The translations under genes and the position numbers were made by a program. DNA of 61,007 nt from an uncultured Bacilli bacterium (GTDB taxonomy: Bacteria > Bacillota_I > Bacilli_A > RF39 > UBA660). This document shows, piece by piece, positions 8,952 to 11,989 of the stretch. The notes under the pieces are model-generated. The model did no database searches. It was not told the DNA's origin and saw nothing but the letters and a program-made list of their open reading frames with translations. Location of the stretch: NCBI GenBank assembly GCA_947625575.1, contig CANQOV010000003.1:1-61007 (forward strand). Direction: 5' to 3'. Positions within the stretch are counted from its first letter, which is position 1, and every line of letters begins with the position of its first letter.

Positions 8952-10460
8952 TTATAATATTCTTTCTCTAACTTTTTTGTTTGGTTTGTTTATTTCATTA
9001 TCTTTAAAATTATCTATATTTATTTTAGGGTGAAAACTTAAAAAATACTTCCCTATTTTATCTTTTTCTAAATTTGGTGCATATATGAATTGCAAAGAAT
9101 TATTAAAGTGTAAGAAAGCTTCTCCTGCTACTTGTAAGCTTGGAAGTATTAGCACTTGCAATGTGTTATTACAAAACAAAAAATTATCTCCTACTACTTG
9201 TAAAATTGCCAAGTTTATAGATTTCAATGAATTATTTAAATGCAAAAAATCATGATTTACAAATTGTAAATTGGGAAGAGTTAGATGCTGTAATGAGTTG
9301 TTACAATATAAGAAACGATTTCCTACTTTTTGTAAGTGTGACAAATTTAGAGATTTCAATGAATTATTAGAATATAAAAAACTATCTCCTGCTACTTGCA
9401 AATTTGGAATAATTAACTCTTGTAATGAGTTGTTACAATATAAGAAATAATCATTTACTTTTTTAACATTATAATTTTCTAATTTTATAATTTGATTATA
9501 TTCATTTAATACTATTTTTACATCTATACCGCCTTTTACTTTTATTATTACTATTTTATCTTTTTCTACTTTTTTTACTTCTATTTTTTCGATATCTTTT
9601 ATAGTGTCAACAAATGAATCAGTATCTTTGCTATTGTACGTTTTTATTGTTTTATTTACTAAATCTAAGATAAAATAATCCATAACTATATATTTTTCTT
9701 TATCATATCTTTTTACTTCATAATTATCTATTATTATATTGTTTGGACAGTAATATATATTATTTATTTTTTGATTATATTTATAATACTTTCCGTCACT
9801 TGCTTTAACATAGCCTTTTAGTTTGACTTTATATTTTTGTTTTAAGCCATATCCTTTTTCAAAACTTTTTGTTAAACCCGGTGTAATATTGTCTAGATTA
9901 TTTGAAAATGTTGAATCCGAATCAGCAACACTGTGATTATATCTATTTTTTATAGATAATGTATTGCAATCATCTTTTTTAAATTGAATACTTAATACAC
10001 TTGTTGCATATTTATCTTGTCTATCTGGGGTTTTATAATCTTCTCGTTTTATTTGGTCTACATCTTTTTTTACGGCAAAGAAAACATGACAATAATCTAA
10101 TATTCCTTTTGCAAAGGTGCCTGCTTTTTCGTATTTTGCATAATATTTTTTAAAACTTTGGATATCTTTTTCTATATGACACTCATATAAATTATATCCT
10201 ATTTCACTTAACAATTCTTCTGGTGTCTTATTGGTTTCTATTTCATCATCTTTTGTTAAACTATAAATATAATCTTTAAATTCTTTTTTCTTGTTTTGTT
10301 TAATAATATCGTCATATAAACTATGATTTGGCTCGAAATTATTAAATAATAAATTTGGTAATAAATCTTTTGTTTCTAATATATCAGAAAAATATTTACA
10401 ACAAAAATTAGCCATTTTTTCTCCATAGTTTTCTTTTATTAATTTTAAATCAGTATCCAT
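8952..10460 (-). CDS. Unknown N-terminal domain plus 22-aa leucine-rich repeats (BspA/TpLRR-like), paralog 1
   Basis: About six C-terminal repeats of type GDxFLYxNNSLxxLxLPNLQxV; no signal peptide; paralog of 10541..11989. Confidence 0.8.
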   Translation of the reverse strand: MDTDLKLIKENYGEKMANFCCKYFSDILETKDLLPNLLFNNFEPNHSLYDDIIKQNKKKEFKDYIYSLTKDDEIETNKTPEELLSEIGYNLYECHIEKDIQSFKKYYAKYEKAGTFAKGILDYCHVFFAVKKDVDQIKREDYKTPDRQDKYATSVLSIQFKKDDCNTLSIKNRYNHSVADSDSTFSNNLDNITPGLTKSFEKGYGLKQKYKVKLKGYVKASDGKYYKYNQKINNIYYCPNNIIIDNYEVKRYDKEKYIVMDYFILDLVNKTIKTYNSKDTDSFVDTIKDIEKIEVKKVEKDKIVIIKVKGGIDVKIVLNEYNQIIKLENYNVKKVNDYFLYCNNSLQELIIPNLQVAGDSFLYSNNSLKSLNLSHLQKVGNRFLYCNNSLQHLTLPNLQFVNHDFLHLNNSLKSINLAILQVVGDNFLFCNNTLQVLILPSLQVAGEAFLHFNNSLQFIYAPNLEKDKIGKYFLSFHPKINIDNFKDNEINKPNKKVRERIL

Positions 10461-10487
10461 AAATGTCTCCTCATCAATTCGGGTTAT

Positions 10488-10517
10488 ATTGTAGCAAAAA
10501 AAAGATTATATTGTCAA
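10488..10517 (-). promoter_or_regulatory. Sigma-A promoter of LRR paralog 1
   Basis: TTGACA-18-TACAAT with extended TG; RBS GAGGAG. Confidence 0.7.
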
Positions 10518-10540
10518 ACATAATAATAGATTTTAGATAA

Positions 10541-11989
10541 CTATCTTCGTATTAATTTTTTAGTGTTTTCATCTGTTTCATAATCTTTAAAATTATCTAT
10601 ATTTAGTATTGGGTGTGACATTAAAAAATTCTTTCCTATTTTTTGTATATTTGGTAAATATATGAATTGTAATGAATTATTATAATATAAAAAATCATTT
10701 CTTACTATTTGTAGGTTTGGTAGATTTAGCACTTGTAAAGATTTATTATAAAATAAGAAACAATTTCCTATTGCTTGCAAATTTGGTAAATTTAGTCCTT
10801 GTAATAATTTATTGTAATGTAAAAAATCATTTCCTACTATTCGTAGATTTGGTAAACTTAGCACTTGTAATGAATTATTACGATGTAAAAAATCATTTCC
10901 TACTACTTGTAAGCTTGGAAGAGTTAACTCTTGCAATGTGTTATTATAATATAAGAAACTATTATTTACTTTTTTTACATTATAATTTTCTAGTTTTATA
11001 ATTTGATTATATTCATTTAATACTATTTTTACATCTATACCATTTTTTACTTTTATTATTACTATTTTATCTTTTTCTACTTTTTTTACTTCTATTTTTT
11101 CGATATCTTTTATTGTATCTATAAAAGAATCATTAATTTTATTATTATATGTTTTTATTTTTTTATTTACTAAATCTAAAATAAAATAATCCATAACTAT
11201 ATATTTTTCTTTATCATATCTTTTTACTTCATAATTATCTATTATTATATTATTGGGGCAGTAATATATATTGTTTATGTTTTGATTGTATTTATAATAT
11301 TTTCCGTCGTTTGCTTTAACATAATTAATCATTTCAAAATAAGTAGGTATTGTTTTTTGTTTCATTTTGTAATAATCTTCAAAACTTTTGGTTAAACCCG
11401 GTATTATGTTATCTAAATTGTTTGAAAATGTTGAATCTGGATTGTCAACAATATGATTGTATCTATTTTTTATTGATAATGCACAAGAATCATCTTTGTC
11501 AAATTGAATACTTATTACACTTGTTCCATATTTATCTTGTCTATTTGGGGTTTTATAATCTTTTCTTTTTATTTGGTCTACATCTTTTTTTACAGCAAAA
11601 AATACATAACACCATTTTAATCTTGTTTCATTAAAAGTACATAATTCTTCCCCTTTTGCATAATATTTTTTAAAACTTTGGATATCTTCTTGTGTATGAC
11701 ACTCATATAAATTATATCCTGCCTCATTTAATAATTCTTCTGGTGTTTTATGAGTGTTTATTTCTTTGGCTTCTTTGATCTTTAATAAGTTATATATACA
11801 ATCTTTAAATTTATTTTCTTTGTTTTGATTTATAATGTCGTCATATAAACTATGATTTGGCTCGAAATTATTAAGTAATATATTGGGTAATAAACCTTTT
11901 GTTTCTAAAAGAGTAGAAAAATGTTTGCAACAAAAATGAGCCATTTTTTCACCATATTTTCTCTTTATTAGTTTTAAATCAGTATTCAT
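10541..11989 (-). CDS. Unknown N-terminal domain plus 22-aa leucine-rich repeats, paralog 2
   Basis: About five LRRs (GNDFLHYNKLLQGLNLPNLQAI type); N-terminal motifs ELCTF, RQDKYGTSVISIQF, SIKNRYNH, NPDSTFSNNLDNI. Confidence 0.8.
   Translation of the reverse strand: MNTDLKLIKRKYGEKMAHFCCKHFSTLLETKGLLPNILLNNFEPNHSLYDDIINQNKENKFKDCIYNLLKIKEAKEINTHKTPEELLNEAGYNLYECHTQEDIQSFKKYYAKGEELCTFNETRLKWCYVFFAVKKDVDQIKRKDYKTPNRQDKYGTSVISIQFDKDDSCALSIKNRYNHIVDNPDSTFSNNLDNIIPGLTKSFEDYYKMKQKTIPTYFEMINYVKANDGKYYKYNQNINNIYYCPNNIIIDNYEVKRYDKEKYIVMDYFILDLVNKKIKTYNNKINDSFIDTIKDIEKIEVKKVEKDKIVIIKVKNGIDVKIVLNEYNQIIKLENYNVKKVNNSFLYYNNTLQELTLPSLQVVGNDFLHRNNSLQVLSLPNLRIVGNDFLHYNKLLQGLNLPNLQAIGNCFLFYNKSLQVLNLPNLQIVRNDFLYYNNSLQFIYLPNIQKIGKNFLMSHPILNIDNFKDYETDENTKKLIRR

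Follow-up and report, generated by a model that had tools for sequence, protein, structure and literature searches.

Two adjacent genes in a 61-kb stretch of DNA from an uncultured Bacilli bacterium (contig CANQOV010000003.1) encode members of a large protein family in which a conserved N-terminal domain, hereafter the head, is followed by a beta-rich connector and by a C-terminal array of 22-residue leucine-rich repeats (LRRs). Throughout the text, the window is this whole stretch of 61,007 nucleotides, and positions count from its first letter. A head under constraint, a binder under positive selection and a repertoire shaped by the birth and death of copies together are the signature of recognition driven by conflict. 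The reading preferred here, which is tentative, is that the proteins recognise components of phages or mobile elements in the cytoplasm, through a variable binding domain joined to a constant head. Both genes, named paralog A and paralog B, were found on the minus strand exactly where the initial annotation of this DNA had placed them, with products of 482 and 502 amino acids (aa), respectively, and both are intact open reading frames (ORFs). Pairwise alignment shows 68% identity along the whole length of the two proteins, which differ mainly by an indel of exactly one 22-aa unit, and no third family copy was found in the 61-kb window. The window reads cleanly with genetic code 11 and is very AT-rich, with a G+C content of 22–32%.

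The repeats were characterized through a family scan, from which the consensus of a unit was obtained as F-L-x-x-N-x-x-L-x-x-[LI]-x-L-P-x-[LV]-x-x-[IV]-G-x-x. The period of 22 aa is strict (929 of about 970 spacings), and family proteins contain between 1 and 19 units (median 7); the architecture of a constant N-terminal domain joined to a variable number of LRRs, proposed initially from the two paralogs, holds across the family. The early count of about six and five repeats was reproduced by a scan with a position-specific scoring matrix (PSSM), which returned six units in the 502-aa protein and five in the 482-aa protein, and Tandem Repeats Finder reported a period of 66 nt at 9089–9463 (paralog B) and at 10622–10958 (paralog A, 5.1 copies). 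The highest entropy, 3.5–3.7 bits, was observed at repeat positions 3, 4, 6, 7 and 22. Positions 3 and 4, where Tyr, Phe, Ser, Cys, Arg, Asn and His are frequent, correspond to the [Y/H/F][C/S/R/L/Y] sites flagged in the initial annotation, and they are among the most variable in the family. The same seven residues abound over positions 3, 4, 6 and 7 taken together.

Selection on the repeats was evaluated through the ratio of nonsynonymous to synonymous substitution rates (dN/dS). By repeat register, with 330 pairs pooled, positions 3, 4, 6 and 7 gave values of 1.65, 1.38, 1.00 and 1.93, respectively, with scaffold positions at 0.01–0.3. In the main estimate, based on 38 non-overlapping gene pairs with a bootstrap over pairs, the dN/dS of these four variable positions was 1.27 (95% confidence interval (CI) 1.08–1.50), and 1.41 in pairs at least 72% identical. 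The corresponding values were 0.60 for polar strand-face positions, 0.28 for the connector, 0.22 for scaffold positions and 0.19 for the head. For the variable positions, single-copy syntenic orthologs gave 1.2–2.1 and adjacent array paralogs 1.31. The LRRs therefore diversify, as had been suggested, instead of lying under purifying selection. In the AlphaFold 2 (AF2) model the strand of each repeat spans positions 10–12 and the hypervariable residues lie in a loop around the conserved Asn5; therefore, they are not the classical concave-face positions, but four positions flanking a conserved Asn.

From these observations a working mechanism can be proposed. The C-terminal LRR solenoid would act as the specificity module, and positions 3, 4, 6 and 7 would align along it and form a ridge for the binding of a macromolecular ligand that evolves fast. 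New specificities would arise by tandem gene duplication, by the gain or loss of whole repeats and by positive selection at the variable positions, in an old clade-specific family that would evolve by birth and death of its copies. The head, for its part, would carry out one common, probably catalytic, act on the bound ligand or in response to it. A very different proposal is a housekeeping or regulatory adaptor which recruits cellular substrates and whose LRR variability reflects relaxed constraint. Such an adaptor would fit the housekeeping genes that flank the family, its kept positions (after pcrA or before yqeG) and its orientation, co-directional with the neighbours. It is, however, very improbable, in view of a dN/dS above 1, with a CI excluding 1, at defined positions next to scaffold positions that stay at 0.2, of the range of copy number (1 to at least 14) and repeat number (1–19), and of the confinement of the family to one clade and phages.

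The family is large. A full-length search gave more than 3,500 matches, the best 120 all with E below 1e-174, in which the only source names were 'hypothetical protein' from Mollicutes or Bacilli metagenome-assembled genomes (MAGs); in the protein database paralog A makes up a separate cluster and has over 3,500 homologs. When the search was restricted to aa 1–341, the head search gave 1,175 clusters at 50% identity with E≤1e-3, 993 with E≤1e-10 and 648 with E≤1e-30, and in nearly all of the best 150 clusters the head begins within the first few residues of proteins of 357–785 aa. At least 569 sites were confirmed in species-representative genomes. Among the matches listed, all derive from uncultured gut Bacilli, Tenericutes or Candidatus Onthousia-type MAGs, plus 'Clostridium sp. 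CAG:914', and the hosts of these MAGs include rabbit, human (Hadza and others), chicken (Candidatus Onthousia) and rumen.

The copies were further analysed in a sample of 72 related loci that carry 143 of them, always in the same direction within a locus and between 1 and at least 14 per locus. Tandem arrays hold 8–11 copies per 17–20 kb (11 in 20 kb in L004, nine in L002 and eight in L001), and since L004 and L010 share part of a single 40-kb contig, the tandem copies on it number at least 14. Flanking genes are of the housekeeping type and vary between loci; in the window they comprise a YqeG-like HAD phosphatase, the YqeH GTPase, a type-I phosphodiesterase, tRNA-Pro and tRNA-Arg. One locus, L055 (10001–16901), mirrors positions 7381–11989 of the window, with three copies instead of two followed by yqeG-yqeH. 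Between the two loci YqeG and YqeH are only 36–40% identical and thus less conserved than the family proteins, which are 45–49% identical between the loci and 68% identical to each other. Given that this arrangement is shared by neighbours so diverged, the locus is therefore old and its duplications are lineage-specific, which corresponds to birth-and-death evolution.

As to where these proteins act, the initial annotation had described them as devoid of a signal peptide and of a transmembrane (TM) helix, and hydropathy and motif checks agree with that description. No TM helix was predicted in either paralog (19-residue Kyte-Doolittle maxima of 0.91 and 1.30), no hydrophobic stretch compatible with a signal peptide was found through hydropathy, regular expressions or the position of the N-terminal motif, and a lipobox, an LPXTG motif and a Walker A motif were absent from both proteins in motif checks. 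In a hydropathy scan 98% of 349 family proteins lacked a TM helix. The N-terminus of the family is a conserved charged helix from residue 1–4, with a YGE motif at residue 11–16 which therefore leaves no room for a signal peptide. Cys makes up 1.6% of the residues, against 1.05% in the other ORFs of the window, and some Cys are conserved. A Cys-rich composition with conserved Cys is unusual among exported proteins of Gram-positive bacteria. Together with the stand-alone phage homologs described below, which are encoded among non-structural genes, the missing export signals and the composition are three lines that point to a probable action inside the bacterial cytoplasm, as far as the sequences allow this to be judged.

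The class of the repeats leads to the strongest competing proposal. By its consensus and its 22-aa period the unit belongs to the BspA/TpLRR class, as the initial annotation had it. This assignment stands through the homologs, which score 51–127 bits on PF13306 (LRR_5), and through the family profile, which matches the BspA-like structures 4fs7 (E 1.4e-17) and 4fdw (E 2e-8); it does not stand through paralogs A and B themselves, which match no Pfam LRR model at E≤1. Similar proteins include Tannerella BspA, those of Candidatus Mycoplasma girerdii and the Bacteroides LRR surface proteins with the structures 4fs7 and 4fdw, with which the family shares a repeat of the 22–23 aa class (LxxLxLPxxLxxIGxxFLxxN) and the habit of forming expanded, length-variable families in host-associated microbes. 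It differs from them in having no signal peptide, TM anchor or lipobox, in the head and connector of about 340 aa, which are absent from BspA, and in that the window proteins fall below the Pfam LRR_5 threshold. In Candidatus Mycoplasma girerdii, 26 BspA-like proteins were described, 23 of which carry a TM anchor (PMC4206474).

It is accordingly conceivable, though on the whole not probable, that the family consists of surface or released adhesins, or of proteins of antigenic variation, exported by an unrecognised route or by lysis, with the LRR part binding host mucosa, a protist or a partner bacterium and the head serving as an anchor to the envelope. The repeat is of the type of BspA-like surface proteins (4fs7, 4fdw, 4fd0 and PcpA being among the LRR matches), and such families are known to be expanded in host-associated organisms, the 26 members in Candidatus Mycoplasma girerdii being one example (PMC4206474). 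Tandem arrays, variation in repeat number and positive selection would all suit antigenic or adhesive variation, a stable chromosomal position across deep divergence would suit a lifestyle gene, and the giant phage homologs in virion modules could be external binders. What speaks against adhesins is that a signal peptide, lipobox, TM anchor or LPXTG motif was not detected (by hydropathy in the 349 proteins, by motifs in the two window proteins), that a conserved charged helix occupies the N-terminus from residue 1–4, that the proteins are Cys-rich with conserved Cys, and that the stand-alone phage homolog lies among genes of DNA metabolism or early type and not among tail genes.

The phage homologs themselves were identified by a scan of IMG/VR with the head motifs, which gave 43 viral contigs with two main classes. 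The stand-alone class comprises about 30 contigs, mostly of 95–210 kb and about 32% G+C, with proteins of 565–585 aa (L084 at 7791–9527, L085–L114, L120 and L126). In these proteins the head and an initial portion of the connector are joined to a helical C-terminus of unrelated sequence; one of 578 aa is 40% identical to a window protein over aa 82–278 (E 1e-32), and the genes adjoin those of a DNA methyltransferase, DUF5688 and DUF1351. The giant class was found in nine contigs of 30–70 kb (L115 at 3513–14249, L116–L119 and L121–L124), with proteins of 3,550–3,740 aa which embed the head, the connector and a far larger number of 22-aa LRRs, again of this type, colinear with aa 59–467 of a window protein at 32% identity (E 5e-58). 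Here the module lies between regions with HExxH motifs (HEVAHGV and HEAGHIW), read from the sequence, and the C-terminal part has what seem, by eye, to be hydrophobic stretches. In L123 the giant gene adjoins that of a virion structural protein. The giant proteins matched no Pfam or PHROG family other than LRR_5, and no peptidase model.

Since the same module is present in phages, phage-host conflict is the simplest placing for it, and the homology of both the head and the whole module makes a role in genetic conflict, on either side, more plausible. The module may thus be a weapon or a sensor of this conflict, and the chromosomal copies would most likely recognise proteins of phages or mobile elements inside the cell. 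The giant proteins also recall the polyvalent proteins of phages and conjugative elements; those of phages are encoded alongside late genes and packaged, and presumably enter the host with the DNA (PMC5512222). Homologs of about 3,600 aa in virion modules, carrying head, connector and LRRs as well as HExxH motifs, are consistent with that comparison; unlike polyvalent proteins, the window proteins are short, single-module and chromosomal, and the giants have no Pfam match beyond LRR_5. In the main text of the study by Iyer and others, there is no mention of the head described here or of LRRs (Iyer et al., 2017; PMC5512222). The presence of the whole module in giant and stand-alone phage proteins (in the latter, the head and part of the connector), along with tandem amplification, could also be read as a sign that the bacterial copies are remnants or domesticated parts of phages or mobile elements, for example of former virion or ejection proteins or of counter-defence genes, amplified selfishly and without any recognition that benefits the host. 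This is distinctly unlikely: a tblastn search found no homolog in 50,697 GenBank phage genomes or 72,556 PLSDB plasmids, the bacterial loci have neither an integrase nor phage genes at their flanks, and the copies are intact ORFs whose heads are under strong purifying selection (omega 0.19) and whose synteny is kept between distant genomes.

The head, of about 215 aa across the family alignments, was confirmed as a conserved N-terminal domain of both paralogs. Its motifs ExxCT, RxDxYGTS, SIKNRYNH and DxT[FY]xNxL, followed by the beta connector and the 22-aa LRRs, are all present in A and B, with a few substitutions in B, where near-invariant residues are altered (equivalents of G155A, C117G and N183D/P184S). 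Residues invariant in both bacterial and phage heads include E85, G91, E114, C117, T118, R123, R150, D152, Y154-G-T-S157 and Q162, as well as S172-I-K-N-R-Y-N-H179, D185, T187, L192, G198 and L199. The pattern, about 25 invariant polar residues in some 215, suggests that the domain contains a site for catalysis or ligand binding. For the 482-aa protein, AF2 gave a model with a mean predicted local distance difference test score (pLDDT) of 86, and a head-only model reached 81. In the full-length model, a helical N-terminus (aa 1–90) precedes an alpha/beta core (aa 92–207), the connector, of about 120 aa, is rich in beta-hairpins (aa 223–334, pLDDT above 90), and the LRR part forms a regular solenoid with one short strand per 22 residues; the most conserved loop of the head (aa 178–188, NH..NPDxT) is the part of lowest confidence. 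Between A and B, the middle region at aa 223–340 has a dN of 0.035 and a dS of 0.38, with only about 60 nt identical. The near identity noted initially for this region holds for the protein and not for the DNA; it is conserved by purifying selection, and recent gene conversion as its source was rejected in view of the dS of 0.38.

Library, profile and fold searches (AF2 with Foldseek) were also used to check whether the head belongs to a characterised family, and no significant match was found; a fold search with the full-length model returned LRR proteins only. Several candidates were considered and set aside. PARP1 gave weak repeated matches with a TM-score of about 0.2 and was rejected. Rpb5_N appeared below threshold in 12 of 26 members (best E 0.014), and SmD2, also below threshold, had an E of 0.06; neither was accepted. 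A Cys97-His179-Asp185 triad was dropped, C97 not being conserved in the phage homologs. An HNH-like (beta-beta-alpha-metal) arrangement of NH...N...D/N fits the predicted beta-beta-alpha topology, but the profile search of the PDB brought up no nuclease, and it is retained as speculation only. PcfJ (PF14284; large Firmicutes phages, pCF10) requires a longer comment. In some bacteria of the candidate phyla radiation, targets of diversity-generating retroelements carry a PcfJ-like domain upstream of the hypervariable region (PMC5758913). In a Foldseek search of BFVD with the head model, 7 of the 17 top matches were PcfJ-like (best E 4.5e-3, probability 0.87, TM-score 0.30), although none reached E≤1e-3 and their TM-scores were 0.2–0.3 with root-mean-square deviations of 16–18 Å; the order of short motifs also looks similar. 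On the other side, no Pfam match to PcfJ was found in 26 members even at E≤10, hhalign of the head with a 10-phage PcfJ alignment gave a probability of 0.5–0.6%, a word-index search starting from the PcfJ domain gave no match, and the Cys that would align with the HC motif of PcfJ (C97) is not conserved in phage heads. Homology to PcfJ was consequently rejected, and the relationship stands as an unconfirmed lead.

Nothing found identifies the head as an effector domain, the term that the initial annotation had used for it. The analogy behind that term deserves attention, as the IpaH, SspH and SlrP effectors are multicopy proteins that join a constant catalytic domain to a variable LRR part, with many paralogs each having an LRR of its own. 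The present family resembles them in its one conserved, probably catalytic, domain; it differs in the order of domains, which is reversed (the head being N-terminal), in the absence of NEL and of a type III secretion system, in the Gram-positive type of its organisms and in the class of LRR. It is conceivable but unlikely that, by the same logic as IpaH, SspH and YopM, the proteins are effectors delivered into an animal host, a gut protist or a competing bacterium, with the LRR part of each paralog directing the constant catalytic domain to a target protein of its own and the conserved basic tail serving as an export signal. This would agree with the multicopy parallel to IpaH, with the invariant polar residues of the head, Cys and His among them, and with the C-termini, since in all family tails a short cap (FLxxHP..N..NF) precedes a K/R-rich end that is kept across the family. 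The genomes, moreover, are apparently reduced, to judge from their very low G+C, and the arrays would take up a noticeable share of them, which suggests that they matter for a dependent lifestyle. Yet the loci show no associated secretion system or chaperone, the domain order is the reverse of IpaH with neither NEL nor a further known effector domain present, the tail is an export signal only by analogy, and the small protein encoded next to many copies (see below) has no similarity to known chaperones or immunity proteins. The K/R-rich tail could be a signal, or else a contact with membrane or nucleic acid.

This small protein is encoded by an ORF of about 95 aa (ending in ...YLKRYYG), which lies 0–30 nt downstream of a family gene and on the same strand in 35 of the 72 loci (for example L030 at 8578–8868, L039 at 11690–11980 and L065 at 11440–11724). 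It has only 236 database homologs, all stand-alone and of about 93–96 aa, and is without relatives in Pfam or the PDB. Perhaps it acts as a partner, such as an immunity protein, a chaperone or an adaptor; it is not present in the viral loci. In Onthousia-like genomes a single family copy follows pcrA and is followed by this conserved ORF. In L035, L036, L039, L051 and L057 (e.g., L039 at 12121–13455) the order is pcrA, family gene, the ~95-aa ORF, an AAA_14/DUF4143 ATPase, two nucleotidyltransferase-like genes and ligA, which looks like an insertion into the usual pcrA-ligA neighbourhood. A second type of small ORF, of 112–152 aa and starting with MDEIKNKDITFKELIEMYKELYN..., separates the ~95-aa ORF from the family gene that follows in two arrays, L010 (8123–8461) and L016 (6442–6900), and has no Pfam match.

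Comparison with immune receptors was prompted by the initial annotation, which had likened the pair to innate-immune systems. No evidence of an immune function was found: there is no STAND NTPase, no PADLOC match and no defence island, and the neighbours are housekeeping genes. With NLR and STAND proteins (plant NLRs and bacterial Avs/NACHT) the family has in common a variable repeat sensor under diversifying selection, clustered paralogs that undergo birth and death and synthesis in the cytoplasm. It departs from them in the lack of an NTPase and of any Pfam or PADLOC match, in a sensor that is C-terminal to a small head and in its location outside defence islands. No NACHT, NB-ARC or AAA P-loop domain between head and repeats was matched in Pfam or PADLOC, and Walker A was found in none of 144 family ORFs. 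A bolder and rather doubtful reading is that the clade maintains a germline repertoire of intracellular LRR receptors, free of an NTPase and directed at phage proteins, in which a new catalytic or signalling head is fused to a positively selected LRR part and diversity arises by tandem duplication and by gain or loss of repeats. Phages would use the same module, also within giant proteins that may be injected with their DNA, to bind host proteins, so that it would serve both sides of the arms race.

The view of these proteins as cytoplasmic recognition proteins aimed at phages or mobile elements has to be weighed against several points. The proteins have neither an NTPase switch nor a recognisable cell-killing domain, and LRRs of the BspA type usually occur outside the cell. 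An extracellular role would also be indicated if the giant phage proteins were adhesins on the outside of the virion, as they could be. The dN/dS values are pairwise Nei-Gojobori estimates at a dS of 0.3–0.6, from repeats that can recombine and outside any tree-based codon model. For the head, nothing significant was found in Pfam, NCBIfam, PADLOC or PHROGs, no PDB relative was recovered by sequence profiles from four different alignments, and its AF2 model matched no PDB fold with E below 1; for the whole window proteins, the models of PADLOC-DB v2 gave no match at E≤1. The housekeeping neighbours (yqeG/yqeH, the phosphodiesterase and tRNAs in the window, and pcrA/ligA in relatives) do not form a defence island, and the position of the locus was kept despite YqeG/YqeH identities of 36–40%, unlike the mobile and patchy distribution that is typical of defence genes. 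Finally, the ~95-aa ORF is absent from the window.

The features of the two genes and of the neighbouring tRNAs are collected in Table 1. The initial annotation had assigned to each gene its own promoter and ribosome-binding site (RBS), and a TTGACA/TGnTACAAT-like site and a GAGG motif do precede each of them; the promoter calls are consensus matches only, of a kind that occurs just as often in shuffled sequence. The upstream sequence is nearly the same for A and B, with GAGG 7–9 nt before the ATG, and therefore the duplicated unit included its promoter. No terminator-like site was found between A and B.

Table 1. Positions in the window of paralogs A and B, their parts and control elements, and the neighbouring tRNA genes.
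Feature	Position	Strand	Residues or description	Basis
Paralog A	10541..11989	-	482 aa: head, connector, 5 LRR units, basic tail	ORF
A promoter-like site	12016..12044	-	TTGACA-17-TG-TACAAT	consensus match only
A RBS	11996..12000	-	GAGGG	read from sequence
A head domain, alpha/beta	11345..11989	-	aa 1-215	alignments; phage homologs
A connector, beta-rich	10958..11344	-	aa 216-344	AF2 hairpins aa 223-334; paralog conservation; present in phage homologs
A LRR units, five x 22 aa	10628..10957	-	aa 345-454	PSSM scan; profile match to 4fs7
A cap and basic tail	10541..10627	-	cap FLxSHP..N..NFKD, tail KKLIRR, then stop	family tail comparison
Paralog B	8952..10460	-	502 aa: head, connector, 6 LRR units, basic tail	ORF
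B promoter-like site	10488..10517	-	TTGACA-18-TG-TACAAT, inside the 80-nt spacer between paralogs	consensus match only
B RBS	10467..10472	-	GAGGAG	read from sequence
B head	9834..10460	-	aa 1-209	pairwise and family alignment
B connector, beta-rich	9447..9833	-	aa 210-338	pairwise alignment
B LRR units, six x 22 aa, last degenerate	9051..9446	-	aa 339-470	PSSM scan
B cap and basic tail	8952..9050	-	tail KKVRERIL, then stop	family tail comparison
tRNA-Pro(TGG) and tRNA-Arg(TCT)	13571-13647 and 13678-13754	-	just upstream of the phosphodiesterase gene	

Some further observations concern the surroundings of the pair. The only terminator-like hairpin of the region lies at 13539–13557, after the tRNAs, and an ORF listed at 13661–13891 on the plus strand overlaps the tRNA-Arg gene in antisense and is probably spurious. 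Nearly all long ORFs of the window are on the minus strand, which fits a small AT-rich genome with a strong strand bias. Prophage or defence genes were not noticed near A and B.

With regard to its novelty, the architecture was not found in Pfam, NCBIfam, PADLOC, the PDB or the searched literature, in agreement with the early statement that it corresponds to no described system. Both the class of LRR and the concept of expanded families with variable LRRs were already known; what is undescribed in the searched libraries and literature is the head, its fusion to LRRs without an export signal and the sharing of these parts with stand-alone and giant phage proteins. Even if the proteins should prove to be adhesins, they would be the main variable interaction proteins of this clade. 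If the preferred reading is true, the family, with about 1,200 clusters at 50% identity and at least 14 tandem copies on a single 40-kb contig of apparently small genomes, would rank among the largest LRR-based recognition families in bacteria, pairing an uncharacterised conserved domain with a positively selected binder and sharing the same module with phages. It would thereby offer a new domain for biochemistry, a testable case of NLR-like LRR diversification without an NTPase in bacteria, and a handle on widespread but uncultured gut Bacilli and their phages.

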